64,000 nucleotides of DNA from Anaerolineae bacterium (GTDB lineage: Bacteria > Chloroflexota > Anaerolineae > UBA7937 > B3-Chlor): assembly GCA_034411995.1 (NCBI GenBank), contig DAOUME010000022.1:3965-67964 (forward strand), given 5' to 3'. The notes beneath the pieces were generated by a model, which was not told the DNA's origin, searched no databases, and saw only the letters and a list, made by a program, of their open reading frames with translations. Shown in pieces: positions 27,647 through 44,031 of the stretch. Every line of letters starts with the position of its first letter. The stretch's first letter is position 1. A program made the translations under genes and the position numbers.

Positions 27647-30600
27647 TTGGTGGCTCAAGAGGATCGCCCACAGGCAACCGCCCCGCCGGAGAGCCGTCGG
27701 GAGATCGAGGGTCTCGTCCAGCGCTTCGCCCGCAACCGCGACGTGTACACCCGCCCCGACTACAAAGAGACCCAGGTCCGCGTGGAGTTCATCGACCCCT
27801 TCTTCGAGGCCCTGGGCTGGGACGTGCGCAACGTCAAAGGGTACGCGGAACAGTACAAGGACGTGGTCCACGAGGACGCCATCAAGATCAGCGGGGCCAC
27901 CAAGGCCCCCGACTACTGCTTCCGCGTGGGCGGGGTGAGGAGGTTCTTCCTGGAGGCCAAGAAGCCCTCCACCGCGGTCAAGGGTGAGGTAGGCCCGGCC
28001 TACCAACTGCGCCGCTACGCCTGGAGCGCCAGGCTGCCCCTCAGTCTGCTCACCGACTTCGAGGAGCTCGCCGTCTACGACTGCCGCCAGCGGCCCCGGC
28101 CCACCGACAAGGCTGGCGTGGGCCGGGTGATGTATTACACCTTCGACCAGTACCTGGAGCGCCTGGACGAGATCTACTCCATCTTCGCCCGGGAATCGGT
28201 CCTCAAAGGCTCCTTCGACCGGTACGTGGAGGACACCAAACGCCAGCGCGGCACCAGCGAGGTGGACGTGGAGTTCCTCAAGGAGATCGAGGGCTGGCGC
28301 GACGAGCTGGCCCGCAACCTGGCCCTGAGGAACCCCCAGCTCTCCGTCCACGAGCTGAACTTCGCCGTGCAGCGCACCATCGACCGCATCATCTTCCTGA
28401 GGATGTGCGAGGACCGGGGCATCGAGAGGTATGGCGGCCTGCTGGGCCTGACCGCCGGTCCCCACGTCTACGACCGTCTGGGGGAGCTGTACCGCGAGGC
28501 CGATCAGAAGTACGACTCCGACCTCTTCGACTTCCAGGCGGACAGACTGACCAGGTCCCTCTCCCTCGACGACAAGACCCTCAAGCCCATCCTCTCCGGC
28601 CTGTACTACCCCGACTGCCCCTACGAGTTCTCCGTGCTCCCCCCGGAGATCCTGGGCCAGGTGTACGAGCAGTTCCTGGGCAAGGTCATCCGCCTCACCG
28701 CGGGCCACCGGGCCAAGGTGGAGGAGAAGCCGGAGGTGAAGAAGGCGGGCGGCGTGTACTACACCCCCTCCTACATCGTGGAGTACATCGTCCAGCAAAC
28801 GGTGGGTCGCCTCATCGAAGGCAAGACGCCCCAGCAGATCTCCAAGCTGCACATCCTGGACCCCGCCTGCGGCTCCGGATCGTTCCTGCTGGGCGCTTAC
28901 CAGCACCTGCTGGACTACCACCGGCGCTGGTACGAAGAGCACGACCCGGAGAAGTACGCCACGGCCAAGCGCCCCGCCCTGTACCAGGGCCGCGGGGGCG
29001 AGTGGCGGCTGACCACGGGGGAGAAGAAGCGCATCCTGCTCAACAACATCTACGGCGTGGACATCGACCGCCAGGCGGTGGAGGTGACCAAGCTGAGCCT
29101 GCTGCTCCAGGTGCTGGAGGGAGAGAGCCAGGAGACGTTGGGCCAGCAGTTGAAGCTGTGGCGGGAGAGGGCCCTGCCCGACCTGGGGGAGAACATCAAG
29201 TGTGGCAACTCCTTGATCGGCCCGGACTACTTTGAGGGGCAGTTGCTGCCCGACGAGGAGGAGATGCGCCGGGTGAACCCCTTCGACTGGGAGAAGGAGT
29301 TCCTCCAGATTATGAAGGCGGGCGGCTTTGACGCGGTCATCGGGAACCCGCCCTACATCCGCATCCAGAGGATCGAGCATAGCGTGGCGGACTACCTCTT
29401 CCGCTCCTATCGGGCTCCGACAAGCAAGACCGACCTCTCTCTGGTGTTTCTTGAGCGCGCTCTGGCCCTAGCAACGGACAGCGGACTTGTCGGCTTCATA
29501 TGCACGTCTCAGTGGCTGTCGACAGACTACGGGCGGAACATGCGGGCCATGCTGTCCGATGGGCGACTTCACCAAGTGGTCGACTTCGGCTCCCTGCCAG
29601 TCTTCCAGAAAGCCAATACATACCCTGCGATCCTGATCCTGAGCCCGACCCGATGCGACGCCCTTGCGCTTAAGCGGATCCGGCGAGGTGAACAGCTGAA
29701 CCTGCCGGGCATCCAAGCTACCGATCCGGTCTTGATCGATCTGGATGGACTATCGGACGACCCATGGAACCTTGGGCGTTTGGATATACCAACGCTGCTC
29801 GGCGAGCGCGGGCTCGAATGGAGACCGCTCAGCGCGTACGCGAACGCGTACATCGGAGTCCTGACCGGCATGGACAGGGCCTTCGTCGTCGAGACGAGGG
29901 CTGCCAAGCAACTCCAGTTGGAGACGGACCTGCTCTTGCCGTACGCGTACCGAGGGGCCGAAGTCCAGCGATATGCTCAGGTGGAGCCTGGGGCCCTGGT
30001 GATTTACCCGTACCGTGAAGGGCCAGGGGGCGCGCCGAGGCTCATCCCCGAACCAGAACTGAGGCGGCACTACCCGAATATCCACCAGCATCTCGTGGCT
30101 CACAAGGATGCTCTGCGTGAGCGAAGAGATAGCCGGAGATTCTACGCGAAGGGGCCAGACTGGTATCGTCACCTGCGCGCGGGCTCCTTCGACTACATTC
30201 ATGCCCGCAAGCTCCTCGTCAAGGGTATTGAGACCCGTACGGTCGTAGGCCTGTTGGACGCGGGGACAGCATTCAATGGCGCGAACTGTCCGGGCGTAAT
30301 CGTCGAAGAGCCACAACAACTCTCGCCTCTCTACATCCTGGGGATCCTCAATTCCGGCGTCATGTCGTATCACCTTCGGATGATCTGCCCGGCGAAGCTA
30401 GGCGGCTACACTAGATTCAATGCTCGCGGCATCAACAGTGCACCCATCCGCACCCTCAGTCGCACAGACCGGGCCGAGGAAGCCCGACACGACAAGATGA
30501 TCGCGCTGGTGGAGCGGATGTTGGACCTGCATGAGAAGCTGGCCGCGGCCACCATCCCCGCCGACAAGAAACTCTACCAGCGTCAGATCGAGGCCACAGA

Positions 30601-30679
30601 TGAGGAGATAGACGCGCTGGTGTATGAGTTGTATGGGTTGACCGAGGAGGAGATCGCTATCGTGGAGGGTCGGGCGTGA
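27647..30679 (+). CDS. type IIG restriction-modification enzyme (fused PD-(D/E)xK nuclease, N6-adenine methyltransferase and specificity domain; Eco57I-like)
   Basis: PDYCF...FFLEAKKP nuclease motif, LDPACGSGSFLL motif I, NPPY at 29345-29356, tail LVYELYGLTEEEIAIVEG; 1010 aa; GAGGAGGAAAG RBS. Confidence 0.9.
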   Translation: MVAQEDRPQATAPPESRREIEGLVQRFARNRDVYTRPDYKETQVRVEFIDPFFEALGWDVRNVKGYAEQYKDVVHEDAIKISGATKAPDYCFRVGGVRRFFLEAKKPSTAVKGEVGPAYQLRRYAWSARLPLSLLTDFEELAVYDCRQRPRPTDKAGVGRVMYYTFDQYLERLDEIYSIFARESVLKGSFDRYVEDTKRQRGTSEVDVEFLKEIEGWRDELARNLALRNPQLSVHELNFAVQRTIDRIIFLRMCEDRGIERYGGLLGLTAGPHVYDRLGELYREADQKYDSDLFDFQADRLTRSLSLDDKTLKPILSGLYYPDCPYEFSVLPPEILGQVYEQFLGKVIRLTAGHRAKVEEKPEVKKAGGVYYTPSYIVEYIVQQTVGRLIEGKTPQQISKLHILDPACGSGSFLLGAYQHLLDYHRRWYEEHDPEKYATAKRPALYQGRGGEWRLTTGEKKRILLNNIYGVDIDRQAVEVTKLSLLLQVLEGESQETLGQQLKLWRERALPDLGENIKCGNSLIGPDYFEGQLLPDEEEMRRVNPFDWEKEFLQIMKAGGFDAVIGNPPYIRIQRIEHSVADYLFRSYRAPTSKTDLSLVFLERALALATDSGLVGFICTSQWLSTDYGRNMRAMLSDGRLHQVVDFGSLPVFQKANTYPAILILSPTRCDALALKRIRRGEQLNLPGIQATDPVLIDLDGLSDDPWNLGRLDIPTLLGERGLEWRPLSAYANAYIGVLTGMDRAFVVETRAAKQLQLETDLLLPYAYRGAEVQRYAQVEPGALVIYPYREGPGGAPRLIPEPELRRHYPNIHQHLVAHKDALRERRDSRRFYAKGPDWYRHLRAGSFDYIHARKLLVKGIETRTVVGLLDAGTAFNGANCPGVIVEEPQQLSPLYILGILNSGVMSYHLRMICPAKLGGYTRFNARGINSAPIRTLSRTDRAEEARHDKMIALVERMLDLHEKLAAATIPADKKLYQRQIEATDEEIDALVYELYGLTEEEIAIVEGRA

Positions 30680-30828
30680 GCGGACGGCGCAGCTGGTCGA
30701 GCCGCACATCCGCTGGTAGGCGCGATGGCCCCGAATCTCGCAATCAGGGCAACCCAATGGGCAGCTAGGTTCGACAGCCGGCCGCGGCCGTGCGGATATT
30801 GGCTGGGCCGGGAGCGCGGAGAGTTGGA

Positions 30829-31656
30829 GTGACCGCAGTTGTAGGCGTAAGTTTCCTCTCGGAAGTCATAATGATCGCAGATACTAGGGTGTCCTGGCCA
30901 GGCGCCCCACGGCCACCAGCAGATATGTTGCGGAAGCTGTACCCGGTCTTTTCGCCGCGAACTCCACAAAAGGCAGCTGTGCTGGGTTTCTCCGGCACAA
31001 TATCGGCGGCCAAAACAGTAATGATACACCTCGTGAAGGACAAGCTTCGCAACTACAATCGGCCCCTGATAATGGTCAATCTGAAAGACCATTTGAAGTG
31101 CTGGATAGAAGAAGTGACGGTGACCTGCCTGAGTCCGAGGAGCAGAACCGGCCTCACCTTCATGCTCTGCGGGCTTGAACCCTCCCGCACTGCTGCTGCA
31201 AGAAAGGGAAACGCGCTCGTGAGGTATAGACAGATCTTGGAAACCCACATATACGTCTTCAGTGTGAGCCAGAGCACCGGCAGAGTAGACGTGGTGAAGA
31301 AAGGCCTCTTCGCCGTCATTGGCTCGGGTGCAACACTCGAGCGAGAGCTGAAACGGAAGATTCCGCCAATGATCAGGTTCGGATTCAACCAGCCGAATCT
31401 GCATTGGGCACGAGCTCGCTTGGTGGGCGAAGTAGCGCGAGGAGTTTTTGACAGCGGCGGCGCAACCACAGTTGGCGGACCGTTTCAAGTGTTCCGCATC
31501 ACAGCAGAAGGCTTGGTCACCGAGTACATCTGGCCGGCAAGTATACAACCAAGAGACGTCAGCGTACGACAAGAAGGCCAAAAGACCATAATACAGAATC
31601 GAGACCTCAACCAGACTTACACGCTCCATCCCATATGGGACCTGCCATTGCAGTAG
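30829..31656 (+). CDS. proteasome-beta/HslV-like Ntn (threonine) hydrolase homologue, stand-alone
   Basis: GTG 30829 lies 5 nt after GGAGAG and gives M-TAVVGVSFLSEVIMIADTRVS: Thr1 directly after the initiator, Asp17 in ADTR, Lys35 in RKLYPV, later AVIGSGAT and DSGG...FRITAEG; this order matches the proteasome beta fold. Confidence 0.6.
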   Translation: MTAVVGVSFLSEVIMIADTRVSWPGAPRPPADMLRKLYPVFSPRTPQKAAVLGFSGTISAAKTVMIHLVKDKLRNYNRPLIMVNLKDHLKCWIEEVTVTCLSPRSRTGLTFMLCGLEPSRTAAARKGNALVRYRQILETHIYVFSVSQSTGRVDVVKKGLFAVIGSGATLERELKRKIPPMIRFGFNQPNLHWARARLVGEVARGVFDSGGATTVGGPFQVFRITAEGLVTEYIWPASIQPRDVSVRQEGQKTIIQNRDLNQTYTLHPIWDLPLQ

Positions 31657-31679
31657 TGGGCGAACCAGCAAGTGGCGCC

Positions 31680-31811
31680 GCCACCATCCCCGCTGACAAG
31701 AAGCTCTGCCAGCGCCAGATGGAGGCCACCGATGAGCAAATCGACGCGCTGGTGTACAAATTGTATGGGGTGACGGAGGAAGAGATCGCTATCGCGGAGG
31801 GCCGGGGTTGA
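31680..31811 (+). repeat. remnant copy 2 of the type IIG gene 3' end
   Basis: 132 nt align without gaps to 30548-30679 (19 substitutions by hand count); encodes ATIPADKKLCQRQMEATDEQIDALVYKLYGVTEEEIAIAEGRG-stop with no upstream ORF. Confidence 0.9.
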
Positions 31812-31851
31812 CAGCCAGAAACCCGATGCGGTAGGGACCTAGACGGGCGGC

Positions 31852-33510
31852 TTGCGGCATGACCAGACCGGCCTCCTCTCGCAGAGCGCAAGGCCGGGCA
31901 ATGCAGCGACCGGGGGCATCAGGGGAAATACATTGACAACCATCTCGCAGGGTGAACTGAACAACCTGAGCGTGCTCATCGTGGAAGATGCGCGGCAGGC
32001 TCTGGAGATGCTACTACGGTATCAGCAGAAGTACCGCGACGACATCAATTTCGCCGCGAACAAAGGAGGTTTGCTGATTGACATTGGTAGTCGTCTCGGC
32101 GACACCGGTGTTGTACGGCAGGGCATGGCGTCGATTGATGAGTTGCTGCCGAGGGCTGGTGAGCAATCTCGTCCCCTTCTCCTCTACAATCTAGGCAACG
32201 GGTATATGGCGTTGCACTCCATTGCTCGGCGCCAACCTGGCTTCTCATTCGACCCCGATGACACTAGACTCCGTGAAGCCAAGCGCTGTTACCGCGGCGT
32301 GCTGGGAGGATCAGAGCGTCTTGATGCCAACCAACGCGCTGGACTCCGAGTGAACTATGGCAACTGTCTCGCGAGTCTTGGCCGTTCCCTCGAGGCAATC
32401 CACCAATACGAGACGGCTCTCCGCCACGCGCCCAATCACCCCATGGCATGGGGGAACCTGGGAGTTGAGTTGGAGCGCTTCGCGTTCGTTGGTCAAGACC
32501 CGGCCATCCTGCGGGCTGCGAATGAAGGGCTACTCAGGGCTCTTGCAGATGATAGCCTTGAGCAAATGGGAGAGGATTCGGCGCGCCCCGGTTTCGAAAA
32601 GGCGCAGCAACGTATTGCACGGCTGTTGAGCCAGCTTGTAGAAGACGCGGGACTGGGCGGGCCCGAGGTGCCCCAGGCCGCGACACCGTATCATCAAGCG
32701 TACAGCGAGTTCTGTGTGAAGCATGAACTCTTCCTGAATTTCTGTCTGAAGGGCCGCCCATGCCAGCGGGTGGCTGAAGATGCTGTCAGTTTGTCAATTA
32801 CCACGCCACTTGATGACGAGACGACCTACCCTCGGCTCGCACGAGTGGTCAACGAGATCAAAGAACGATACGCGGTCGCCCGCCTACTGCTGTTCGAAGC
32901 CTGCAATCCGCCTCTTGACACTCAGCCATATGACGAGATGACCTACTACGCGGACAATCTCGACTACGCCGTATACGGGATTGGTCCCACCAAGCTGAAG
33001 CTGGCCTTTGAAAGTGCCTACAACATCTTGGACAAGCTGGCCTTCTTCGTCAACGACTATCTCGATCTGGGGATCAAGGTGCGGCTGGTGAGTTTTCAGG
33101 GGCTATGGAAGGAGCGCAAGACGGCCGCTCTCAGGCCTGCGATTGTCGAACGTGGTAATTGGCACCTGTATGGCCTGTACGACCTCTCCAAAGACCTAGC
33201 ACCGACAGGCTACCTTGAGCACCTGCGGCTCACCCGAGACTATCTAACACACCGCTATCTGGTGCTCCATGTTGAGGGGCTAGATTGGCTAACGTCCGCC
33301 GATGGTCCTGGGTACCACTCGGGCTACCGCCAGTTGCTGACCAACACGATCGAATTGATGCGACTCGTCCGCAGTGCGGTCATCTACCTCATCGCCTTCA
33401 TCGACCGAGAGGAGCGCGCGAAACGCCAAGACGGAGAGGGCTCTATTGCACCCATGCGTGTCCCGCCTTATAGGCCTTACCGGTTGGGTCCGCAGGATGC
33501 TCCAATGTAG
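31852..33510 (+). CDS. TPR-repeat protein with C-terminal HEPN-like (Rx4H) domain, LA2681-like architecture
   Basis: TPR-like helices (NYGNCLASLGRSLEAIHQYETALRHAPNHPMAWGNLG); C-terminal RLTRDYLTHRYLVLH (R-x4-H); start uncertain (TTG 31852 or TTG 31933 after AGGGGAAA). Confidence 0.6.
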   Translation: MRHDQTGLLSQSARPGNAATGGIRGNTLTTISQGELNNLSVLIVEDARQALEMLLRYQQKYRDDINFAANKGGLLIDIGSRLGDTGVVRQGMASIDELLPRAGEQSRPLLLYNLGNGYMALHSIARRQPGFSFDPDDTRLREAKRCYRGVLGGSERLDANQRAGLRVNYGNCLASLGRSLEAIHQYETALRHAPNHPMAWGNLGVELERFAFVGQDPAILRAANEGLLRALADDSLEQMGEDSARPGFEKAQQRIARLLSQLVEDAGLGGPEVPQAATPYHQAYSEFCVKHELFLNFCLKGRPCQRVAEDAVSLSITTPLDDETTYPRLARVVNEIKERYAVARLLLFEACNPPLDTQPYDEMTYYADNLDYAVYGIGPTKLKLAFESAYNILDKLAFFVNDYLDLGIKVRLVSFQGLWKERKTAALRPAIVERGNWHLYGLYDLSKDLAPTGYLEHLRLTRDYLTHRYLVLHVEGLDWLTSADGPGYHSGYRQLLTNTIELMRLVRSAVIYLIAFIDREERAKRQDGEGSIAPMRVPPYRPYRLGPQDAPM

Positions 33511-33544
33511 TCCCCAGGTGCCGCGTGCAGAACTCTAGTTCGGG

Positions 33545-33598
33545 GTGCTAGTGTATGAGTTATATGGGTTGACCGAGGAGGAGATCGCGATTGTCTGA
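33545..33598 (+). repeat. remnant copy 3 of the type IIG gene 3' end
   Basis: GTGCTAGTGTATGAGTTATATGGGTTGACCGAGGAGGAGATCGCGATTGTCTGA = (V)LVYELYGLTEEEIAIV-stop. Confidence 0.85.
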
Positions 33599-33631
33599 AG
33601 GGCTTCCTCAGCGCAGAGAGTAGGCTGTAGC

Positions 33632-34135
33632 ATGATTCAGCCTTGGAGCGACCCCATACCGTACGACCTATCCCGCACGCTGCGTCGGGCAAGTGTCCCG
33701 CCGGGGTTCAGCAGTAGTGTGCCGCAGACTCCGGGTACGTACGTGATCTATTGCACCGCTCAACCAGACCTATGTGAAGCTATCATTGATATCGGAGAAG
33801 CTGGCCCGCGCGCCAAAGCGAGACCAAAGGGCCTCCGAGGGAGGCTGGCAACTACAGTTGCCCACACGGCCTCTGAAAGGATGGCCGCTGACGTACAGGC
33901 CGGCAAACTCCCGAACAGACTCCGTGTAGTTTGGATCGAGAGGCCGTCCAAAGAGGACGCCAAGGAGTTACAGGACGCACTTATCAGCCTCTTCCGAACG
34001 GATTGCGGACGCCAGCCGCGACACAACAAGAGACTGGAGCAGCACCCAAAGCCTGAGGCCTTCCTGGCGATTTGCGCCGCCCTGAAGAGGCACATTGGCG
34101 GCCTATTGCGCCACCCGACGGCCCGCTGCGGGTGA
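33632..34135 (+). CDS. GIY-YIG-like nuclease domain protein
   Basis: PGTYVIY...IIDIGEAG...GLRGRL...H...VVWIERPSKEDAKELQDALISLF...P.HN follows the GIY / YIG / R / H / E / N order of GIY-YIG domains. Confidence 0.45.
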   Translation: MIQPWSDPIPYDLSRTLRRASVPPGFSSSVPQTPGTYVIYCTAQPDLCEAIIDIGEAGPRAKARPKGLRGRLATTVAHTASERMAADVQAGKLPNRLRVVWIERPSKEDAKELQDALISLFRTDCGRQPRHNKRLEQHPKPEAFLAICAALKRHIGGLLRHPTARCG

Positions 34136-34244
34136 CCAGACCGGCGTGCCCCAGGTTGGAGTGAGCGCTGCCCCCCGGCGGGCTCAGCCCGAGGGGGCCG
34201 GGGGCAAATCGTTCGGTGCAACAGCAGAATCAAAGGAGGAGGAG

Positions 34245-36734: not shown

Positions 36735-37478
36735 ATGAGCATTCGTTTACTCGATTGCGCGCCGATGGCTCCCCGGTACCCACGGTGGCACCTGGGGACT
36801 CCCTGTCTGCTCGTCGACACCGACCAGGGCCTCGTTCTCGTCGATACCGGCCTCGGCCTGCACGACTTTCTGGCCCCAGGGCCCCTGGTCCGCCTCTTCG
36901 CGTGGGCTTTGCGCTTCCCTCACGATCCCGAGCACGCCGCCGTGCGCCAGCTCTCGCGCCTGGGCCACGACCCCGAATCTGTCCGGCACATCGTGATGAC
37001 CCACCTCCATTTCGACCACGCCGGGGGCCTTCCCGACTTCCCCCACGCTCAGGTTCACGTACACCGCCGCGAGTACGAGGCCATGCTCCATCCTCGCAGT
37101 CTGCTAGAGCTGGGCTACGATGGCCTCGATTTCGCCCATGGGCCCTCCTGGGTTCTCTACGACCAACCCACCGAGGACTGGCTCGGGTTCGAGGCTTTCC
37201 GGCTGCCCTTCACGCCGGAGATGTATCTCGTCCCACTCTTCGGCCACACCCGCGGCCATTGCGGGGTAGCCATCCAGGACGATGATGGTTGGGTCTTGCA
37301 GTGTGCCGACGCCCTGCCCACGAATGCTGACTTCGACCTCACCCCGCCATGGCTCAACCGTTTGGTGATCGGACCGCACGTTGCCAGGTTGCGGGAGTGG
37401 GCTTGCCGCCATCCCGAAGTTCGCCTGTTGGCCGGGCACATGCGGCACCCTTTCCCCGATCACAAGGGCGAAGTCTGA
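36735..37478 (+). CDS. MBL-fold metallo-hydrolase
   Basis: HLHFDHAGG metal-binding motif, later H and D ligands. Confidence 0.85.
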   Translation: MSIRLLDCAPMAPRYPRWHLGTPCLLVDTDQGLVLVDTGLGLHDFLAPGPLVRLFAWALRFPHDPEHAAVRQLSRLGHDPESVRHIVMTHLHFDHAGGLPDFPHAQVHVHRREYEAMLHPRSLLELGYDGLDFAHGPSWVLYDQPTEDWLGFEAFRLPFTPEMYLVPLFGHTRGHCGVAIQDDDGWVLQCADALPTNADFDLTPPWLNRLVIGPHVARLREWACRHPEVRLLAGHMRHPFPDHKGEV

Positions 37479-37505
37479 GAGTCCCCGGCCGAAGCGGACC
37501 CGACT

Positions 37506-37544
37506 GGAGAAGAGATCGCTATCGTCGAGGGCCGGAATTGCTGA
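37506..37544 (+). repeat. remnant copy 5 of the type IIG gene 3' end
   Basis: GGAGAAGAGATCGCTATCGTCGAGGGCCGGAATTGCTGA = GEEIAIVEGRNC-stop. Confidence 0.8.
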
Positions 37545-37839
37545 ACCGCTGAGGCCAGCTTCGCAAGGCCAGGCCTGACACCCGCCCCTACCAACCCCCC
37601 AGCCCTGCGTGCGGCGGGCCTTTCTTTGCCCAACACAGACTCGCGAAAGAACCTGAGCTCAGCATACACTTGCGGCAGCTAGCCCTTCTGGCGCCACTGA
37701 GTGCCGCCCGGACACAGCCCATTGGCGAGGACAAACGTGCGCCTGAGGCGCCAGATGGCTTGACGGCGCCGAACGATATCCCCATAATCACTAGTTGGGA
37801 GGACACAACAGGAGGGAATATGAAAGAGCGCGAATCAGT

Positions 37840-38832
37840 ATGGGAAGATTGAGAGTCGGCTTGCTGAACAAGAAACGGGGCAACTTTGCACTCGAAGAAA
37901 GGTTCATAGGCCCCGATGGCGTCGTTGATAGGACGAACGCCGAAGCAGAACATCACCAGCGGGCCCTGACCGAAGCCGGTTACGTTGTCCGCCAGATTCG
38001 CTGGGGCCCTGATTTCATCAACGATCTACAGGCTTCCCCAGTCGATCTTGTGTTCAACGTTTCCAGTCTGGTAGAAGCCGCGATCCTCGAAGAATTGCAG
38101 ATACCCTACGTGGGCTCCGATACGTTCACCATCGCCATCGCCACCGACAAATCGCTGGCGAAAAGGCTCTGGCAGCAGGCGGGCCTGCCGACATCGCCTT
38201 TCTGGCTGGCCAGATCGCAGAAGGACTGTGGCCTGTTTGGGGGCATCCCACCCTTCGAGTATCCCCTGTTCGTCAAGCCGGTGGCCGGCCGAGGCAGCGC
38301 AGGGATCGACGACACGTCCATCGTTCACAGCTACGACCAACTGGTCAGCGCAGTTGTGGAAAGGCTGGAGACTATCGGTCAACCAGTCCTCATAGAGAAG
38401 CTGCTGCGGGGCAGAGAAATCACCCTGGGCGTCCTGGGAAATGAGCGCGCAAGGGCCCTTCCTCCATTAGAGATCGCGTATTGCGAGGGGGATGACACAC
38501 TGACTTTCGAGAAGAAAGAGTTGGACAACGATACCTTCCTCTGCCCTGCTCCGCTGACCGCTGAAGAGACCCACACCATGCAGCAATTGGCGCTTCGGGC
38601 CTACCACGTGTTGGGCTTCAGGGACTTTGGCCGAATTGACACGATCTTGACCGACGAAGGGCCGTGCTTGTTGGAGGGGAACACTTTCGCGGGGCTCATG
38701 TGCACACCCAAGGAGAAACCTCGTAGCTATATTGGCTTCATGGCTCGCGCAGAGGGAAAGGACGGCAAGGCTCTGCTGGATGAGATCATGCAGATAGCTA
38801 TCAGGAGACTCAACTTGAAAGCCTGTGATTGA
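37840..38832 (+). CDS. D-alanine--D-alanine ligase family ATP-grasp enzyme
   Basis: Ddl-like order: LRVGLL..., PYVGSD, KSLAKRLW, FVKPVAGRGSAGI, LIEKLLRGREITLGVLG, GRIDTILT...LEGN; start ATG 37840. Confidence 0.8.
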   Translation: MGRLRVGLLNKKRGNFALEERFIGPDGVVDRTNAEAEHHQRALTEAGYVVRQIRWGPDFINDLQASPVDLVFNVSSLVEAAILEELQIPYVGSDTFTIAIATDKSLAKRLWQQAGLPTSPFWLARSQKDCGLFGGIPPFEYPLFVKPVAGRGSAGIDDTSIVHSYDQLVSAVVERLETIGQPVLIEKLLRGREITLGVLGNERARALPPLEIAYCEGDDTLTFEKKELDNDTFLCPAPLTAEETHTMQQLALRAYHVLGFRDFGRIDTILTDEGPCLLEGNTFAGLMCTPKEKPRSYIGFMARAEGKDGKALLDEIMQIAIRRLNLKACD

Positions 38833-38833
38833 G

Positions 38834-39436
38834 ATGTCAGTACCTCGGATAGAGATAGAACTCGACAAACTGAGCCATAACGCCCGCAAGCTGATAGCTC
38901 TATACGGTTCCAAGCGAATCCACATCGTGGCTGTCACGAAGGGGCTCTGTGGCTCTCCCAGGATTGCGAATCCTCTGCTCAAGAGCGGATTCCGCTGCTT
39001 CGGCGACTCACGCACCCCCAACGTACGAGAGCTGCGCGAGGGTGGCATAGATGCGCAATTCACCTTCATCCGCTCCCCCATGCCCAGCCGGGTCGAGCGA
39101 GTGCTCGAATCTGACGACGTAAGTCTCGATACAAAGATCGCCGTTATGCAGCTTCTTGCCGATGAGGCCACCAGATGTGGCAGAAGCCATCGAGTCAGTC
39201 TGATGGTTGGGCTGGCCTATCTACGGGAGGGCATACTACCCTCCGATCTCGAGCCGGTGGTGAAGGGGATCATTGGCATGCAAGGCATGGATCCACTTGT
39301 CTCCGGCAGGCTGCGGGACGATAATCTGCTGGGCTGGGGTAGTGCCCGCCCGTGGGAGGAAAGGGCAGGCCCAGCGTGCTCATCCGCGTGGATCGGCGGA
39401 AGGGTCGCGCCTGATTCTCTCCCTGAGCAGCGATGA
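38834..39436 (+). pseudogene. truncated amino-acid racemase-like (alanine racemase N-terminal domain) gene
   Basis: HIVAVTKGLCG (PLP-Lys context) and MVGLAYLREGI are present, but the ORF is about 200 aa against roughly 350 expected, and the C-terminal 60 aa look non-homologous. Confidence 0.45.
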
Positions 39437-39483
39437 CCTTCGAGCAGTCGAACCGGCGCGGTTCGGAAAGGAGGGCTACACCA

Positions 39484-40512
39484 ATGTCTGCTTCAACCAT
39501 ACTGGGATACGCCGCGAGGGCGGTGGGACAACCGCTCGAGCCCTTCACCTACGAGCCGCCGCCGTTGGACGAACACGACGTGCGGGTTTCTGTCACTCAC
39601 TGCGGCGTCTGCCACACCGACGTCCACGCCATCGACGACTACTACGGAATCACCACCTATCCCTTCGCGCCCGGTCACGAGATCGTGGGCTACGTCTCGG
39701 ATGTGGGCCCGGCAGCGTCCGGCCTGAAGGAAGGGGACAGGGTGGGCATAGGCTGGCAGGGCCGTTCTTGCGGGCAGTGTGAGTGGTGCTTGAAGGGAGA
39801 AGAGCAACTGTGTATGGACATCGTCCAGGCGGCAACCTGGCTCCCCTACGGAGGGTTCTCCTCCTCCGTCGTCGTGGACAGCCGCTTCGCCTACGGGCTC
39901 CCTGACGGTATGCCCTCGGAGATAGCCTCGGTGCTCATGTGCGCCGGGATCACCGTCTACTCTCCCCTCCGCTCCTTCGCCGCGCCACCCTCGCAGAAAC
40001 TCGGCATCGTCGGCGTGGGAGGGCTGGGCCATCTCGCCCTACAGTTCGCCCGCGCCTTCGGCTACGAGGTCACCGCCATTTCCTCGTCCCCAGAGAAGAA
40101 GGAGCAGGCGCTGGCCTTCGGCGCAGACCACTTCGTCGTCTCGGACCAGGCCAGCCTGTCCGAGCTCGAGTTCACCTTCGACCTGCTGCTATGCACCGCC
40201 AGCGGCAAGATCGACTGGGTGCCGCTGCTGGACACTCTGAAGAAGAACGGCAAGATGATCCTCGTCGGCTTCCCCGACGTGGAGCTCAATTCGACCGACC
40301 TGGTGGCGCACCAACTCTCCATCCTCACGTCCTTCCTGGGCAACCGGGCGCGAATGCGGGAGATGCTGTCGTTCGCGCAGGCCCACGGCATTACCCCCGC
40401 CATCGAGCAAATGCCCATGTCGGAGGTCAACGAAGCCCTTCAGAGAGTGAGAGACAACCAGGCCCGCTACCGCATCGTGCTCGTCAACGAGACGGAGAGC
40501 ACAGGGGCCTAG
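39484..40512 (+). CDS. zinc-type NAD(P)-dependent alcohol dehydrogenase (cinnamyl-ADH/YahK-like)
   Basis: GVCHTDVH, GHEIVG, CGQCEWC structural-zinc motif, GVGGLGH; ATG 39484 after GGAAAGGAGGG. Confidence 0.9.
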   Translation: MSASTILGYAARAVGQPLEPFTYEPPPLDEHDVRVSVTHCGVCHTDVHAIDDYYGITTYPFAPGHEIVGYVSDVGPAASGLKEGDRVGIGWQGRSCGQCEWCLKGEEQLCMDIVQAATWLPYGGFSSSVVVDSRFAYGLPDGMPSEIASVLMCAGITVYSPLRSFAAPPSQKLGIVGVGGLGHLALQFARAFGYEVTAISSSPEKKEQALAFGADHFVVSDQASLSELEFTFDLLLCTASGKIDWVPLLDTLKKNGKMILVGFPDVELNSTDLVAHQLSILTSFLGNRARMREMLSFAQAHGITPAIEQMPMSEVNEALQRVRDNQARYRIVLVNETESTGA

Positions 40513-40590
40513 TCCCCCCTTCCCTCACGGGTGATCTGGTCCAGCCAGACTCGCACCATTACTGCTCAGACTACGGCACAGGAGGCCACC

Positions 40591-41823
40591 ATGGATTACG
40601 ACTTCGACGCCGAGGTCGACCGCCGAGGCACCGACTCTCTGAAATGGGAGTTCATACAGAGCGACGAAGATCCGCTGAAGTGGGAGCTCACCGATTCTTT
40701 CTTCGGAGAAGACCGTACCCTCCCCTTGTGGGTGGCGGACATGGACTTCCCCTGTCCCCAGCCGGTAGTGGATGCGCTGGTGGCCAGGGCCCAGCACGGG
40801 ATCTACGGCTACACCATGCCCTCTCCCGCCTTCTATCGATCCGTCGTCGGCTGGATGCGGAGACGGCACGGGTGGGAGATAGCGCCCGAATGGATCTGTA
40901 TCACCCCTGGGGTCGTGCCGGCCGTCAACATGCTGGTCCGCGCCTTCGTCGCCCCTGGCGACAAAGTACTGATCCAGCCCCCGGTCTACTATCCTTTCTA
41001 CTCCGCCATCGAGAACAACGGCGCCGAGCTGGCCCTCAACCCCCTGATCTACGAGGACGGTCGCTATCGCATGGACCTGGCGGACCTGGAGGCCAAATGC
41101 CAGGATCCTCAGGTCAAGCTGGCCATCCTGTGCAGTCCGCACAACCCCGTGGGGCGCGTGTGGACCCCGGAGGAGCTCCGCCGCTTTGGGGAGATCTGTA
41201 TCGACAACGACGTGCTCGTCGTCTCTGACGAGATCCACGCCGACCTGATCTTCAAAGGTCACGTGTTTACGCCCTTCGCCAAGGTCAGCGAACCCTTCGC
41301 CCAGCATTCCGTCACCTGCACCGCGCCCAGCAAGACCTTCAACCTGGCCGGGTTGCAGACCTCTTGTATCGTCATCCCCAATCACGATCTGCGCTCCGTC
41401 TTCGATAGAATCGTGCAGAGCAACGGGCTGGTCACCGTCGGCACCTTCGGCGCGGTTGCCCTTCAGGCCGCGTACGATCTTGGAGAGGAATGGCTGGGGC
41501 AGCTTCTCGACTATCTCCAGGGGAACCTCGAATACCTCGAGCAGTACGTGGCGGAGCAGATCCCGCAACTATCCGTGGTGCGACCAGAGGGGACCTACCT
41601 GGTCTGGCTCGACTGTCGCCGGCTTGGGCTCAGCAAGTGGGGGCTAAAGCAACTCATGCTGGAGGAGGCGAGAGTCTATCTCGACGAGGGTTTCGTGTTC
41701 GGCCCCCAGGGTGAGGGCTTCGAACGTCTCAACATCGCTTGCCCCCGAGGAGTCCTGGCTGAGGCGCTCGATCGAATCAGGCAGGCCGTGGAAAGCCTGC
41801 CGGCCGGACCGATGTCCGCGTAG
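40591..41823 (+). CDS. MalY/PatB-type PLP-dependent C-S lyase (aminotransferase class I/II)
   Basis: DRRGTDSLKW, WVADMDF, SPHNPVGRVW, SKTFNLAG (PLP Lys); ATG 40591 after GGAGG. Confidence 0.85.
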   Translation: MDYDFDAEVDRRGTDSLKWEFIQSDEDPLKWELTDSFFGEDRTLPLWVADMDFPCPQPVVDALVARAQHGIYGYTMPSPAFYRSVVGWMRRRHGWEIAPEWICITPGVVPAVNMLVRAFVAPGDKVLIQPPVYYPFYSAIENNGAELALNPLIYEDGRYRMDLADLEAKCQDPQVKLAILCSPHNPVGRVWTPEELRRFGEICIDNDVLVVSDEIHADLIFKGHVFTPFAKVSEPFAQHSVTCTAPSKTFNLAGLQTSCIVIPNHDLRSVFDRIVQSNGLVTVGTFGAVALQAAYDLGEEWLGQLLDYLQGNLEYLEQYVAEQIPQLSVVRPEGTYLVWLDCRRLGLSKWGLKQLMLEEARVYLDEGFVFGPQGEGFERLNIACPRGVLAEALDRIRQAVESLPAGPMSA

Positions 41824-41881
41824 CCGGTCGCTGAGCAGCCCCACGCCGTGCTCGTCACATCTCCCAGAGGGTTACAGGAAG

Positions 41882-42886
41882 ATGAACGAAGAGGACCAAC
41901 CTGCTTGGGTGAATCCGCGTCTCGTGCGGCCGCACGGCTGGTCACCCATACTGCACGTCGACCTGGAAAAGATGACAGACCAGCAGAGGCAGACGTTTGC
42001 CCTTCATCGCCTCTCCGGTTTCACGGCTGCGGGTTACCCTGCAGAGAGGTGCTACCATTTCTACACCAACAAGCAAGCTGAGTCCTTCTCGCTGCCCACC
42101 TACGTGTGGACACCCTGGAGCAGAGACTCAACCGCGTTGGAACCCGCGAAGATCGAATCGGTGCAGGAAATGCTGCCGTACGTCGCGGATGAGGAAATTG
42201 TCCATGTCTGTCGTTCTCTCATCGAACAGGGACAACTGCTGGACCACACCAGCGAGCAACTGGGCCGGGCACTCGCCGACTTCCTTGGCCTACCCTCCCC
42301 AGAAACCGACCGGCATTCCGAGCAACTGTGGCGACGAGCGAACGAGTATCGCGCGAAGCACGGCCCGGCCTGGGCAAGTCAGGCACAGATCAGGCCACTG
42401 GTCGCCCAGTTGAAGGACGTCTTCGTGGAGCTGAGTTCGTCGCAGTTTGAGCTTCACGGCAGGCTCCGACCCTATTACGAGCGCCTGGCCCCAGGTGGCG
42501 CGGAGATGGGCGATCAACGAGCCGACGACCTGGTCAACCAGGCCATGGAAGAGCCCGACGCCGATCGTGCCATACGCCTGCTCGAGAGAGCCTTACGATA
42601 CGGCAAGACCGGTATCCCGGCCAGCAGGGCCTACGTGGAACTTGCCGGACGCTACTCAGACCGGGGGGAGACCAAGAGAGCCATCGCCTACTACACCAAG
42701 TCCATCGAAGCCTCCAAGATTCCTAACGCCTACGCTCTCTACTGGCGGGGAGAGCTATACTATCAGCAAGAGGAGTGGGACAAGGCGCTCGGCGATTTCG
42801 AACGGGCGGTGTCCATAGGGCTTTTCTCGCCCGAGTGCGAGCAGGCGCAAGAGTATCTAGCCGAGCTGCGTGGCCGTCAGCCCTAG
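41882..42886 (+). CDS. uncharacterised protein with C-terminal TPR repeats
   Basis: AYVELAGRYSDRGETKRAIAYYTKSIE...ALYWRGELYYQQEEWDKALGDFERAV. Confidence 0.55.
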   Translation: MNEEDQPAWVNPRLVRPHGWSPILHVDLEKMTDQQRQTFALHRLSGFTAAGYPAERCYHFYTNKQAESFSLPTYVWTPWSRDSTALEPAKIESVQEMLPYVADEEIVHVCRSLIEQGQLLDHTSEQLGRALADFLGLPSPETDRHSEQLWRRANEYRAKHGPAWASQAQIRPLVAQLKDVFVELSSSQFELHGRLRPYYERLAPGGAEMGDQRADDLVNQAMEEPDADRAIRLLERALRYGKTGIPASRAYVELAGRYSDRGETKRAIAYYTKSIEASKIPNAYALYWRGELYYQQEEWDKALGDFERAVSIGLFSPECEQAQEYLAELRGRQP

Positions 42887-42897
42887 CGATGACCCGT

Positions 42898-42945
42898 GGG
42901 GGTGGGTCTCAGACCCGCCCCTACGCAGGTGCCCTTGCTACGTGG
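42898..42945. repeat. 48-nt element GGGGGTGGGTCTSAGACCCGCCCCTACGMAGGTGCCSTTGSTACGTGG, copy 1
   Basis: Aligns to 45062-45109 with 4 mismatches; contains a palindrome around TCTCAGA. Confidence 0.8.
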
Positions 42946-43069
42946 GGTGATCTCACCCCCGCATACCGTCCGGGCCTGAACAGACATGTCGGCATAGCCA
43001 GTAATCAGCCGCCCCGTCGTGGTACTCACGGTCCCGCTTCGTGGGCAAGGGTAGAGCGGAGGGAGAGTG

Positions 43070-43882
43070 ATGACCAAGAAAGGCGAGGACAGTCGCAAAC
43101 CGCTTGGCACCCGCGAATGGTACGATTTCGTTGGTCAACTCGCAGACGCGCTGCCAGGGATGCACCTGGGAGGACAGGAAGCTACGCAGAAACTGCTGGA
43201 GATGTGCGATCTGGAAGCGACGAGCCGCGTTCTCGATGTGGGCTGCGGTGGCGGGAACACAGCCTGCTTCATCGCCGAGCAGTACGGTTCGTCTGTCCGA
43301 GGGATAGACATATCCGAGGTCATGATCGACAAGTCCAAAGAGAGGGCGCGCCGACAGGGACTGGAGGACAAAGTCGAGTTCCGGGTTGCCGACGCGGCCG
43401 AGCTACCCTTCGAGGATGACTCATTTGACGTGGTCATCGTTGAGTCCGTCTTGACGCCGATACCTGGCGACAAGAGCAAGGCGCTTGGGGAGATGGTCAG
43501 GGTTGCGCGTGCCGGAGGGCGGATTGGGGCCAATGAATCCACTGTGGATCCGTCGGCGCCGGAAGAGTGGCTGGCTCTCCTGGACGAGCACCCGGCCATA
43601 CATGGGTACTTCACGCCGCAGACGCTCCGCAGCCTGTTCGAAGAATCCGGGCTGCAAGTGGTGGAGATGATCGAGGCTCAATACGTGGATACCCCGAAGG
43701 CGCTCAAGGACATGGGCCTACGCGCGGTGTTCTCCTTCATGCTCAGGGCCTATCCAAAGATCCTGCTCCGGCTGCTGCGCGACGCACGGATCAGGGAAGC
43801 CAGCAGGGTCGATGGCCAAATGACGAAGCGGGGCAAGGAGTACATGGGCTACACCTTGATCGTTGGGCAGAAACCTGGATAG
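43070..43882 (+). CDS. class I SAM-dependent methyltransferase (Methyltransf_11-like)
   Basis: VLDVGCGGG motif I, GIDIS, FDVVIVESVL. Confidence 0.85.
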   Translation: MTKKGEDSRKPLGTREWYDFVGQLADALPGMHLGGQEATQKLLEMCDLEATSRVLDVGCGGGNTACFIAEQYGSSVRGIDISEVMIDKSKERARRQGLEDKVEFRVADAAELPFEDDSFDVVIVESVLTPIPGDKSKALGEMVRVARAGGRIGANESTVDPSAPEEWLALLDEHPAIHGYFTPQTLRSLFEESGLQVVEMIEAQYVDTPKALKDMGLRAVFSFMLRAYPKILLRLLRDARIREASRVDGQMTKRGKEYMGYTLIVGQKPG

Positions 43883-43992
43883 CGACCGCGGCCACGTCGT
43901 AGAAAGTGCAGCGCAAAACGGCAGGTGTCGAATGGATTGTGTTCATAGGGGCGACGGCCCATAAGGCGCTACAGGGCCAGACTCGGGCCACC

Positions 43993-44031
43993 GCTGGAGA
44001 GATCGCTACGGTGGAGGGGCGGGACCGCTGA
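43993..44031 (+). repeat. remnant copy 6 of the type IIG gene 3' end
   Basis: GCTGGAGAGATCGCTACGGTGGAGGGGCGGGACCGCTGA = AGEIATVEGRDR-stop. Confidence 0.75.

Follow-up and report, generated by a model that had tools for sequence, protein, structure and literature searches.

The RM gene and the array behind it

The stretch of DNA analysed here (the window, 64 kb) contains an intact Type IIG restriction-modification (RM) gene encoding 1010 aa. Pfam recognizes in it an HSDR_N nuclease, an Eco57I/MmeI-type methylase and a TaqI_C specificity domain, and the PADLOC model REase_MTase_IIG matches it over its full length (E 2.5e-226). The conserved 3' block of the gene, hereafter the tail, was delimited by identity to the homologous gene of a relative (L082) and by repeat family D1-D3; the part that recurs downstream is 30544-30679. 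A blastn search with the last 280 nt of the RM gene as query gave exactly five further tail matches, all on the + strand and all downstream of the gene, in agreement with the positions at which the original prediction had placed them. No tail match was found elsewhere in the 64 kb. The features of the array and its surroundings are as follows.

27647-30679, + strand, Type IIG RM gene (Pfam, PADLOC)
30440-30679, + strand, tail of the RM gene, reference copy
30680-31675, + strand, cassette 1: ORF 30790-31656 (288 aa) without family match, GC3 0.62
31676-31811, + strand, tail copy 2, covering -136 to -5 of the RM gene, reading frame and TGA stop kept
31812-33546, + strand, cassette 2: gene 31852-33510 for a TPR and LA2681-like HEPN protein (Pfam, E 4e-46)
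33545-33598, + strand, tail copy 3, ending in VLVYELYGLTEEEIAIV-stop
33599-34768, + strand, cassette 3: ORF 33632-34135 (167 aa)
34769-34849, + strand, tail copy 4 (blastn)
34850-37505, + strand, cassette 4: ORF 35030-36085 (351 aa) without family match, GC3 0.58
36570-36598, REP-like palindrome in cassette 4
36735-37478, metallo-beta-lactamase-fold gene in cassette 4 (Pfam)
37503-37544, + strand, tail copy 5, ending in TGEEIAIVEGRNC-stop
37545-43989, + strand, segment 5, composite (Pfam)
37795-38832, D-Ala-D-Ala-ligase-like gene of segment 5 (Pfam)
38825-39436, truncated alanine-racemase-like gene of segment 5 (Pfam)
39433-40512, ADH gene of segment 5, with a conserved leader of ~160 nt from about 39270
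40531-41823, aminotransferase gene of segment 5 (Pfam)
41711-42886, TPR gene of segment 5 (Pfam)
42896-42924, REP in segment 5
43067-43882, methyltransferase gene of segment 5 (Pfam)
43990-44031, + strand, tail copy 6, the last, ending in TAGEIATVEGRDR-stop; end of the array
44050-44078, REP-like palindrome after the array
44114-44803, + strand, ORF after the array: DUF4386-like N-terminal fragment fused to DUF1801

The blastn alignments comprise 31676-31806 in copy 2 (131 nt, 86%, E 1e-40), 33547-33594 in copy 3 (48 nt, 92%, E 2e-14), 34769-34841 in copy 4 (73 nt, 86%, E 6e-20), 37509-37535 in copy 5 (27 nt, 89%, E 3e-4) and 43999-44023 in copy 6 (25 nt, 88%, E 4e-3). Copy 2 aligns to the end of the RM gene without gaps, with 19 mismatches in 132 nt, 9 synonymous changes among 16 changed codons and the stop kept, exactly as had been counted by hand. 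The stop codon in the tail frame is also kept in copies 3, 5 and 6. A 20-nt core, GAGATCGCTAYSGTSGAGGG, itself derived from the tail copies, occurs five times on the + strand of the window, against 0.01 occurrences expected by chance. At the protein level copy 4 may reach upstream to about 34513, and the predicted ORF 34095-34691 of cassette 3 probably overlaps this RM 3' remnant.

The proposed division into five cargo segments holds for the array as a whole, except that segment 5 is composite. In it the truncated alanine-racemase-like gene abuts the ADH block, which has its own preceding tail copy in three other arrays. Together with the aminotransferase gene this block is 89% identical at the nucleotide level to that of locus L099, where it lies directly behind a tail copy. 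In the deltaproteobacterial locus L075, a homologue of the cassette 2 TPR/HEPN gene likewise sits immediately behind a tail copy, the ORF 33632-34135 of cassette 3 is common to loci L001 and L091, again behind a tail copy, and the order tail-REP-DUF4386 recurs in L001.

GC3 of six cargo genes is 0.58-0.69, compared to 0.85 in the flanking core genes and in the RM gene, which is thus host-like; the difference in base composition first noticed by eye is real. The cargo is mostly foreign. Of the window's cargo genes, the LA2681-like HEPN gene alone is clearly of defence type, the rest being metabolic or without assigned family, and a test of nine cargo ORFs against PADLOC gave no match to a defence system. 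As had been stated from the sequence, integrases and transposases are absent from the ORFs scanned with Pfam (about 9.2-48 kb of the window) and no tRNA gene lies beside the array; the sole one, tRNA-Leu at 15660-15744, is 12 kb upstream. Folding similar to attC was absent (z-scores -0.7 to +1.5).

Arrays in relatives and across the RM family

Two relatives carry arrays at the same chromosomal locus, with LepA, 5'-nucleotidase and MFS genes upstream: L001 with five copies and L082 with seven. Their cargo is largely different from that of the window. The survey covered 128 non-redundant homologous RM loci from many phyla of bacteria and archaea, and at least one downstream tail copy is present in 45 of them, about a third, so that tail-flanked cargo, as predicted, accompanies other genes of the family. 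The 84 cassettes have a median length of 1.2 kb, and in 71 of 78 cases their longest ORF runs in the direction of the RM gene (+). These 78 ORFs fall into 69 clusters, and the cargo is largely of defence type (HEPN, PIN, TIR, Schlafen, OLD-like ATPases, GmrSD, RhuM). A dispersed repeat unrelated to RM genes does not account for the copies: beyond the array the window holds none, and off-pattern matches across the 128 loci amount to two on the minus strand and seven upstream. A scan of 83 cargo ORFs taken from the survey likewise turned up no recombinase. All comparison sequences are MAG or metagenome contigs, and trans-acting recombinases elsewhere in the underlying genomes are possible.

Position of the junction between cargo end and remnant is variable, from -237 to -27 at the nucleotide level and from 20 to 172 codons at the protein level. 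In the 70 remnants scored in the survey, the length retained is at most 172 codons out of about 1000, with a mode at 60-100. Copies do shorten with distance from the gene, as suggested, although the trend is weak (Spearman rho -0.32, p = 0.013, 59 copies in multi-copy arrays). Two loci show duplications with little or no cargo: a 303-nt tandem duplication in L029 (88-96% identity) and a 52-nt tail copy 26 nt past the stop in L075. In the L010 contig, the whole gene-plus-array block is repeated about 10.7 kb upstream, which may be an assembly artefact. No near-identical pair of loci with a clean empty site was found among those compared.

Mosaic genes and breakpoints inside tails

Comparison of the window, L001 and L082 reveals a mosaic RM gene. 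Codons 1-560 are 85-93% identical at the nucleotide level in all three; over codons 580-940, the ~360 codons before the tail, identity of the window and L001 genes to L082 drops to about 40%, and in the last 70 codons it returns to 80-87%. The same conserved/variable/conserved pattern is seen in four metagenomic RM pairs. The gene is thus composed of 560 conserved 5' codons, a swapped specificity region and a conserved end of ~70 codons, and with conserved ends flanking a swapped middle, the tail is placed as the 3' homology arm for allele exchange. In the family at large, the 5' two-thirds and the last ~70-80 codons are conserved and the specificity region between them is hypervariable.

Homology between arrays starts or stops inside tails, at differing positions (-121, -73, -185). 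The segment +2668 to +4183 of L107, an internal tail with its cassette, matches -121 to +1392 of L111, a real gene end with its first cassette, at 95%, whereas the tails of the two RM genes are 88% identical, their 5' parts 90%, and their specificity regions do not align. This favours allele replacement with stacking over local target duplication. A unit with its start at -73, within a tail, is common to loci L095 and L109 at 99% identity. The MJECL34 cassette and the tail following it form one contiguous alignment between L001, where they occupy array position 1, and L082, where they occupy position 2, and this alignment stops at the tail. The RM genes of the window and L099 are only 60% identical in aa despite their highly similar ADH blocks. 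The role of the tail as a recombination anchor, as originally proposed, is supported by both the mosaic gene and these breakpoints.

Tail copies often resemble the gene tail of another genome more closely than that of their own locus. Copy 4 of the window shares 92.8% identity with the genuine tail of the L099 gene but only 86% with the resident one, and the segment -185 to +71 of L106 is a closer match to the first downstream copy of L165 than L165's own gene tail is. Divergence of tails is independent of that of their flanks: they are 84% identical both where cargo pS is 0.57 and where it is 0.054. When 33 copies are pooled and compared with their resident tails, pN/pS is 0.29, and it is 0.25 between non-genic copies at matching positions; selection on the copies themselves could be an alternative cause of the latter value. 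Together with the matches of copy 4 to L099 and of L107 to L111, the pooled value upholds the view that the copies did not arise as local duplicates but are ends of homologous genes, either imported or displaced.

Assembly of the arrays and relation to known systems

We consider it probable that the cassettes are stacked and shuffled through allele replacement by homologous recombination at the RM 3' block, in which tails pair unequally. RM alleles would be exchanged by crossovers in conserved parts of the gene, presumably through RecA-type recombination. If incoming DNA already bears cargo and a second tail, the right-hand crossover could pair the distal tail with the resident one, placing the donor specificity region, donor tail and cassettes ahead of the resident tail, which would persist as a 5'-truncated remnant with the old downstream genes still attached. 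The direction of each event is part of this proposal. Repeated rounds, plus gene conversion and recombination between direct repeats that delete, excise and re-insert or re-order units, would yield an ORF-tail-ORF-tail order with all units co-oriented with the RM gene, fast turnover of arrays and a cargo pool common to lineages. Cargo may be kept because of its role in defence. A donor already having two tails is required, and the origin of the first duplicate thus lies outside the model; it was probably a rare illegitimate join or a tandem duplication such as those in L029 and L075. The variable position of the cargo-end/remnant junctions suggests that each of them was first formed by non-homologous joining. 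Judged from the DNA examined, the array was apparently assembled without a dedicated recombinase. The original interpretation, tail-anchored stacking of RM variants and cargo, is supported by these data, and the pattern points to defence islands built by ordinary homologous recombination.

Each cassette might instead have entered alone by insertion with long target duplication, an illegitimate, possibly restriction-break-triggered join at the 3' end of the gene that duplicates tens to hundreds of bases, with the repeats later blurred by gene conversion. RM-linked rearrangements of this kind, free of mobility genes, are on record (Furuta et al. 2010, PMC2853133), the 5' boundaries of tail copies vary, and the duplications in L029 and L075 lie at the same place. 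It may well be the origin of the first duplicates, but as an account of the arrays it is rather unlikely: repeats derived from the resident gene should begin identical and drift neutrally, which neither the pooled pN/pS nor the proximity of copies to foreign gene tails bears out, and the L107 tail differs by 12% from its internal copy while the adjoining cassette is only 5% diverged from L111. We give very little credence to a trans-encoded integrase (integron-like, Xer-like or island-type) that uses a site inside the tail as attB/attC, the copies then being att sites of integrase-less, mobilisable cassettes. The ORF-repeat-ORF-repeat layout, single orientation and ~1.2 kb cassettes do resemble integron arrays, and elements entering gene 3' ends with a replacement end are known (e14/icd). 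Against this stand the lack of recombinases in the window ORFs scanned and in the survey cargo, the absent attC-like hairpin, the continuous variation in repeat length and boundaries, and the differing breakpoints. Moreover, tail nucleotide sequences differ widely between high- and low-GC hosts and are conserved at the peptide level only, which makes a single DNA recognition site implausible.

In-place decay of former tandem complete RM paralogues, with copies as deletion leftovers bearing no causal tie to cargo gain, is highly improbable, even though the remnants are genuine RM 3' ends, a few reaching 140-172 codons, and L010 has a duplicated RM-plus-array block. Searches of the window and L001 arrays with 103 family proteins revealed nothing from the 5' 80% of the gene, only the last 20-172 codons remain in any remnant scored, no second full-length copy was found within the flanks of any surveyed locus other than L010, and remnants are all co-oriented and interleaved with single foreign genes. 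Equally slim is the chance that the copies are functional themselves, as small peptides mimicking C-terminal helices of the enzyme (regulator- or antitoxin-like) or as cis elements for cargo expression. Non-genic copies keep the reading frame at a pN/pS of about 0.25, some are called as genes of 53-57 aa in public annotations, and one has an in-frame ATG (L001 14347). Start codon and length are inconsistent, however, with many copies of only 8-25 codons; distal ones gather stops and non-synonymous changes (L082 copies 6 and 7), and gene conversion from functional tails accounts for the same pN/pS.

In the literature searched, we found neither a published description of such RM-tail cassette arrays nor a report of gene-end remnants repeated as cassette boundaries, in line with the original remark that no description of such a mechanism was known. 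The nearest parallels are insertion with long target duplication at RM loci, compared below, and the orphan cassettes that lie behind the rhs and cdiA genes and behind mafB of Neisseria. In the orphan arrays, units carry a fragment of the gene's conserved coding sequence, and their origin is attributed to homologous recombination, incoming alleles displacing the previous end; no dedicated recombinase is known to take part. These arrays are likewise serial, downstream of a large gene and with a gene fragment per unit. Their repeat, however, precedes a variable toxic C-terminal domain and an immunity gene, and recombination alters the main protein, whereas in RM-tail arrays the repeat is the extreme 3' end with its stop, the main protein stays essentially as it was and the cargo is made up of independent, unrelated genes. 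With e14 and phage 21 in E. coli icd, incoming DNA supplies a diverged homologous 3' end and the gene stays intact. As here, the displaced original end persists downstream and differences are mostly synonymous, but the process is integrase-mediated at a fixed core site and leaves one duplicate around a whole prophage. Accessory genes are also known in RM operons (PrrC in EcoprrI; RhuM, Schlafen/AlbA_2 and PIN genes in Type I loci), and defence islands were reportedly described by Makarova et al. in 2011 by gene content, without an assembly mechanism; in both, genes of the kinds that make up the RM-tail cargo lie beside an RM gene.

In insertion with long target duplication, foreign DNA adjoins RM genes between long direct repeats of resident sequence (>30 bp, variable) without mobility genes (Nobusato et al. 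2000; Furuta, Abe and Kobayashi 2010, PMC2853133). There the RM system itself is what was inserted, with a single duplication of an arbitrary chromosomal target. In the RM-tail arrays the RM gene stays in place as the anchor, the repeated sequence is in every case the 3' coding end of that gene, and repeats come from diverged alleles, iterated up to seven copies, with non-RM cargo. In Type IIG genes of close relatives, differences are known to be confined to the specificity region, with conserved sequence on both sides (PMC2853133), an allelic swapping like the mosaic of the window, L001 and L082. Integrons, among them the sedentary chromosomal ones reported to hold defence cassettes (bioRxiv 10.1101/2024.07.02.601686), share with RM-tail arrays co-oriented, mostly single-gene cassettes of ~1 kb split by a recurring element, extremely diverse and often defence-related cargo, and a platform at a fixed chromosomal position. 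RM-tail arrays differ from them in having no IntI integrase, attI or attC secondary structure; what recurs in them is a remnant of coding sequence whose length varies, and exchange appears homology-dependent.

The anchor gene and the copies of its tail

Type IIG enzymes combine an N-terminal PD-(D/E)xK-type nuclease, a gamma-class N6-adenine methylase and a C-terminal target-recognition domain in one polypeptide. The RM protein of the window carries the domains that define a single-polypeptide enzyme of this type (Eco57I/MmeI-like), and its cleavage and methylation activity is predicted. Pfam matches comprise HSDR_N (residues 39-149), Eco57I (466-653, E 6.5e-41), MmeI_Mtase, N6_Mtase and TaqI_C (848-934), while residues 15-1005 match positions 5-1003 of 1011 in the PADLOC model REase_MTase_IIG (E 2.5e-226). 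The reading frame is intact, with host-like GC3.

Codon-aligned comparison of this gene, or that of the homologous locus L001, with the RM gene of L082 (both loci represent the same chromosomal locus in other genomes) divides it into three parts. Nucleotide identity is 85-93% in codons 1-560, ~40% in codons 580-940, which make up the specificity region, and 80-87% in the last ~70 codons. The same three parts are found in four metagenomic pairs, with the 5' 1.6 kb ~90% identical, an unalignable middle, and 84-88% identity in the last ~200 nt. The gene is therefore a mosaic in which relatives exchange the specificity region, and the tail is its conserved block of homology on the 3' side. That Type IIG recognition domains show allelic diversity is already known (Furuta et al. 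2010, PMC2853133).

When the last 280 nt of the gene were used as a blastn query against the whole 64-kb window, five further matches were obtained, all on the + strand and all downstream of the gene. This agrees with the original prediction that the tail recurs five more times in the same orientation, and the same repeat families were recovered by an independent repeat finder.

Type IIG RM gene and further tail copies in the window (coordinates, strand, feature; tail copies with length, identity and E-value)
27647-30679, +, Type IIG RM gene, 1010 aa; HSDR_N nuclease, Eco57I/MmeI-type methylase, TaqI_C specificity domain
31676-31806, +, tail copy 2; 131 nt, 86%, E 1e-40
33547-33594, +, tail copy 3; 48 nt, 92%, E 2e-14
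34769-34841, +, tail copy 4; 73 nt, 86%, E 6e-20
37509-37535, +, tail copy 5; 27 nt, 89%, E 3e-4
43999-44023, +, tail copy 6; 25 nt, 88%, E 4e-3

The earlier hand count for copy 2 proved exact, with 19 mismatches in 132 positions, no gaps, nine synonymous changes among 16 changed codons, and the stop retained. Copies 3, 5 and 6 also close with an in-frame stop, their last residues differing from copy to copy. A 20-nt tail core, as a pattern derived from the copies themselves, occurs five times on the + strand vs 0.01 by chance. Copies 5 and 6 are individually weak, and are backed by their strand, position, retained stops and the behaviour of relatives. Two other features noticed at the outset were borne out by measurement. 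Base composition differs, GC3 being 0.85 in flanking core genes and the RM gene vs 0.58-0.69 in six genes of the cargo, i.e. of the segments (cassettes) between neighbouring tail copies. Copies tend to be shorter further from the gene, a weak trend of length against array rank across 59 copies in multi-copy arrays (rho -0.32, p 0.013).

Tail-bounded arrays in relatives and across the family

The closest RM homologue, with 86% amino acid identity, is that of L001 (GCA_030603665.1), located behind the same MFS gene as in the window. The two loci have a collinear backbone (167-aa gene, ADH, DUF4386, in this order) and differ in two gene-proximal cassettes and inserted material. L082 (GCA_964433755.1) has upstream genes for LepA, 5'-nucleotidase, MFS, glycosyltransferase and methyltransferase in common with the window, and contains seven tail copies in 10 kb.

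Tail copies in L001
14352-14477
15475-15575
17548-17579
19318-19442
21406-21475

Loci were gathered from species-representative genomes (80) and metagenomes (80), the sediment samples Ga0307378/Ga0307379 yielding numerous arrays. The survey set consists of 128 non-redundant loci in which 1 kb or more of sequence follows the RM gene; every sequence used for comparison is a MAG or metagenome contig, and flanks extend up to 10 kb. At least one same-strand downstream tail copy is present in 45 of the 128 loci, one of which has seven, while off-pattern matches across the survey amount to two on the minus strand and seven upstream. The hosts include Chloroflexi-like bacteria, Planctomycetes, Nitrospirae, Deltaproteobacteria, Victivallis, Methanothrix, Methanolinea and others, and in the clade closest to the window arrays were found in 19 of 23 loci.

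The surveyed cassettes (n=84) have a median length of 1.2 kb, and in 71/78 their longest ORF reads in the same direction as the RM gene. The 78 cargo ORFs fall into 69 clusters, many of them without annotation; Pfam domains include AAA_15/AAA_21 (OLD/AbiEii-like), PIN_8, PIN, TIR_2 and SLFN_AlbA_2, as well as HNH, GmrSD_N, RhuM, DUF5677 and UvrD. The sole mobility-related cargo among the cassettes is a gene in L051 (13236-13811) which, judged from its translation, resembles a REP-associated tyrosine transposase (RAYT-like, IS200-type).

By nucleotide similarity, the 3' limits of copies lie within 30 nt of the stop in 73/84, the 5' limits vary from -237 to -27 relative to the RM stop, and repeat identities are 73-96%. 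Protein similarity with ~170 family members gives remnants of 20-172 codons with a mode of 60-100, approximately the conserved block. Fragments of the first 80% of the RM gene were not detected in arrays; tblastn with 103 family proteins found C-terminal pieces only. The median distance from the end of a cargo ORF to the next copy is 72 nt. In L001 (14347-14508) and L084 (13662-13835; same gene in L085), tail remnants correspond to publicly annotated genes of 53-57 aa, so that remnants have entered public records as hypothetical genes of 50-60 aa, an annotation artefact. The idea that copies are small ORFs gained no support from the second and third copies of L082, in which the promising ATGs are out of frame.

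Several loci show additional peculiarities. In L010, the RM tail with two downstream copies (13123-15088) is repeated ~10.7 kb upstream (2451-4568), the first copy being 100% identical, which represents either a large tandem duplication of an RM-plus-array unit or a MAG assembly artefact. Loci of a Micrarchaeota archaeon (L003, 13001-14640) and a Gemmataceae planctomycete (L030, 13238-14916), neither with tail copies, carry a common two-gene module (~385 aa and ~165 aa, overlapping start/stop) directly 3' of the RM gene; it may be a functional partner travelling with this gene. Furthermore, L142 and L147 from a more distant family branch without tail copies are 95% identical and differ by an indel of ~2.8 kb that begins ~345 nt past the RM stop (+345..+605 vs +347..+3412); the site past the RM gene thus varies even in loci that lack tails.

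Origin of the copies and exchange of cassettes

Substitutions between copies and their resident tails are of the coding type, with pS of 0.27, pN of 0.077 and a ratio of 0.29 in the pooled sample (n=33). Copy 4 of the window is closer to the authentic RM gene tail of the surveyed locus L099 (92.8% identity) than to the resident tail (86%). In a similar way, the first downstream copy of L165 fits the gene tail of L106 together with 71 nt downstream of it better than L165's own tail. A further case is the pair L107 and L111. A stretch of L107 comprising an internal tail, a cassette and the next tail (+2668..+4183) is 95% identical to the real gene end, first cassette and next tail of L111 (-121..+1392). 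Between the RM genes themselves, identity is 90% in the 5' part and 88% in the tails, whereas the specificity regions cannot be aligned; therefore, a different allele and 2.6 kb of cassettes now precede what is the gene end in L111. In line with the original prediction of import from homologous genes, tail copies appear to be displaced ends of other alleles and not local duplicates, to judge from this ratio, the better foreign matches and the units that recur in different arrays.

Other units are also common to different arrays. L095 and L109 have a 99%-identical unit starting at -73, inside the tail. The MJECL34 cassette and its following tail form one contiguous 1.1-kb alignment between position 1 in L001 and position 2 in L082, and the alignment ends at the tail's end. 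A block of ADH and aminotransferase genes is 89% identical in nucleotides between the window and L099, whose RM genes are just 60% identical in amino acids; in L099, L087 and L001 a tail copy immediately precedes this block. The limits of homology between arrays thus fall in tails, and, as judged from these alignments, cassettes move between arrays tied to different RM alleles.

Divergence of tails is not coupled to that of their flanks. The MJECL34 gene has pS of 0.57 between L001 and L082 and is followed by a tail that is 84% identical, and the tail that follows a cassette with pS of 0.054 between L107 and L111 is likewise only 84% identical. Decoupling in both directions would be expected if many tails, functional ones among them, recombine or undergo gene conversion with each other. 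Differences between non-genic copies at matching positions are also mainly synonymous (ratio 0.25), for which selection on the tail copies themselves is an alternative.

Allele replacement by homologous recombination with unequal tail pairing is the best-supported explanation of the arrays. The left crossover would be located in the conserved 5' part of the RM gene or upstream of it, and the right one between the distal tail of a donor array and the tail of the resident gene. The donor specificity region, tail and cassettes would in this way be placed before the resident tail and its old neighbours, and recombination between direct repeats could subsequently delete, excise or re-order cassettes. 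We infer RecA dependence, the direction of events and any selective value of this arrangement. Among the compared loci, no two formed a clean empty-site pair.

Site-specific systems were considered in comparison. Integrons carry an adjacent IntI-type tyrosine recombinase, which may be lacking in CALINs, and their attC sites are imperfect inverted repeats with a conserved single-stranded hairpin and little sequence conservation. The array is alike in layout but has no IntI among scanned ORFs and no attC structure: single-stranded DNA folds of three copies on both strands gave z of -0.7 to +1.5 vs shuffled sequence. Tail repeats are conserved in sequence, as coding DNA; tail DNA differs widely between low- and high-GC hosts, with the peptide conserved. 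This, together with the lack of an attC-like fold, fits homology-dependent exchange and not a sequence-specific recombinase. The original prediction noted no integrase, transposase or tRNA target, and database searches concur. Pfam disclosed no recombinase domains in 40 window ORFs (about 9.2-48 kb), and no integrase or transposase in 83 cargo ORFs of other loci, on MAG or metagenome contigs for which trans-acting factors are possible. The sole tRNA or Rfam match in the window is a tRNA-Leu at 15660-15744, 12 kb upstream. Duplication of att by an integrative island leaves an identical core repeat of fixed length at either end, with an integrase gene beside one of the two; the observed repeats, with their variable extents and identities, and the scanned ORFs show neither. 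Replacement of a gene 3' end is known for e14/icd, which the array resembles in substitution pattern, but with no integrase in the scanned ORFs and no fixed core. Diversity-generating retroelements have an RT nearby, adenine-specific differences between template and variable repeats, and the VR/TR pair at a gene 3' end; this candidate was rejected, with no RT among the ORFs and differences spread over all bases, mostly synonymous and with no adenine bias.

Among systems shaped by recombination, Rhs/CdiA orphan units start with a conserved fragment of the main gene that continues in frame into a new variable C-terminal domain, and an immunity gene comes next. Tail arrays are alike in presumed mechanism and differ in that the remnants represent the extreme 3' end with its own stop, and the cargo consists of independent ORFs with own starts and domains unrelated to the anchor protein, which sets them apart from this class. 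Insertion with long target duplication is characterized by direct repeats >30 bp, to which a single copy corresponds where a relative has the empty site, and by no mobility genes. The array likewise has direct repeats >30 bp and no mobility genes among the scanned ORFs, but its repeats show coding-type substitutions and are closer to tails of other genomes than to the resident one; this speaks against the resident target having simply been duplicated. This class of RM-linked rearrangement comes from the Kobayashi group (PMC2853133), and the array extends it, with roles reversed and the event iterated. Such an insertion would also be a plausible source of the first tail duplicate, which lies outside the allele-replacement model. 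Cargo-free duplications at the same spot, a 303-nt tandem in L029 and a 52-nt copy 26 nt past the stop in L075, may be examples of such a first duplicate.

No description of tail-bounded cassette arrays was found in full-text literature searches, although absence there is no proof of novelty. The known routes of defence-island assembly depend on integrases, transposases, or hotspots between two conserved core genes. A single conserved coding block at the end of a widespread RM gene appears enough to nucleate and grow an island by ordinary recombination, in hosts ranging from Chloroflexi-like bacteria to methanogenic archaea, and offers a concrete, testable route to their assembly. If this holds, it explains why accessory defence genes cluster directly 3' of RM genes, links RM specificity switching to turnover of the neighbouring defence repertoire, and gives a rule for finding new defence genes, namely to search between RM-tail remnants; the arrays would be a practical guide to unannotated candidates. 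We regard as rather unlikely the stronger proposal that the array is a selected, recombinase-free analogue of integrons, in which the RM coding tail would be a universal docking site, used by any member of this family in bacteria and archaea to take up single-gene defence cassettes from a common pool, to stack and re-order them and to lose them again, and in which the RM promoter might drive expression and the enzyme's own DNA breaks might stimulate recombination.

Cargo and neighbouring elements in the window

The window cargo includes an LA2681-like HEPN protein (Pfam); the remainder is metabolic (ligase, racemase fragment, dehydrogenase, aminotransferase, methyltransferase, MBL-fold) or unannotated. 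PADLOC gave no defence-system match for this cargo, save a weak 'mad2' for the methyltransferase, and a promoter/terminator scan gave the same counts as shuffled sequence.

Unannotated cargo ORFs and REP-like elements in the window and its relatives
30790-31656, unannotated cargo ORF
35030-36085, unannotated cargo ORF
36570-36598, REP-like element
37572-37594, REP-like element, partial
42896-42924, REP-like element
44050-44078, REP-like element
45060-45088, REP-like element
L001 19472-19519, REP-like element
L082 about 20780 and 21578, REP-like elements

The ADH gene (39433-40512) is preceded by a leader of ~160-230 nt (about 39270-39432 in the window), conserved at the nucleotide level in L001, L087 and partly L099. 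It has no Rfam match at the gathering threshold and could be a candidate regulatory 5' UTR. An alanine-racemase-like ORF (38825-39436, 203 aa) consists of the N-terminal domain alone and is cut exactly at the start of this conserved leader, so there is probably a rearrangement junction at this border inside segment 5 (37545-43989, between tail copies 5 and 6). The ORF at 44114-44803 resembles a fusion of ~90 N-terminal residues, which match a DUF4386 membrane protein encoded in L001 (20402-20676), with a DUF1801 domain that makes up the rest. In addition, the REP-like palindromic element GGGGCGGGTCTGAGACCCGCCCCTAC occurs in both orientations, often directly after a tail copy. In the sixth and seventh tail copies of L082, its left arm merges with the ...GAGGGGCGGG end of the tail.
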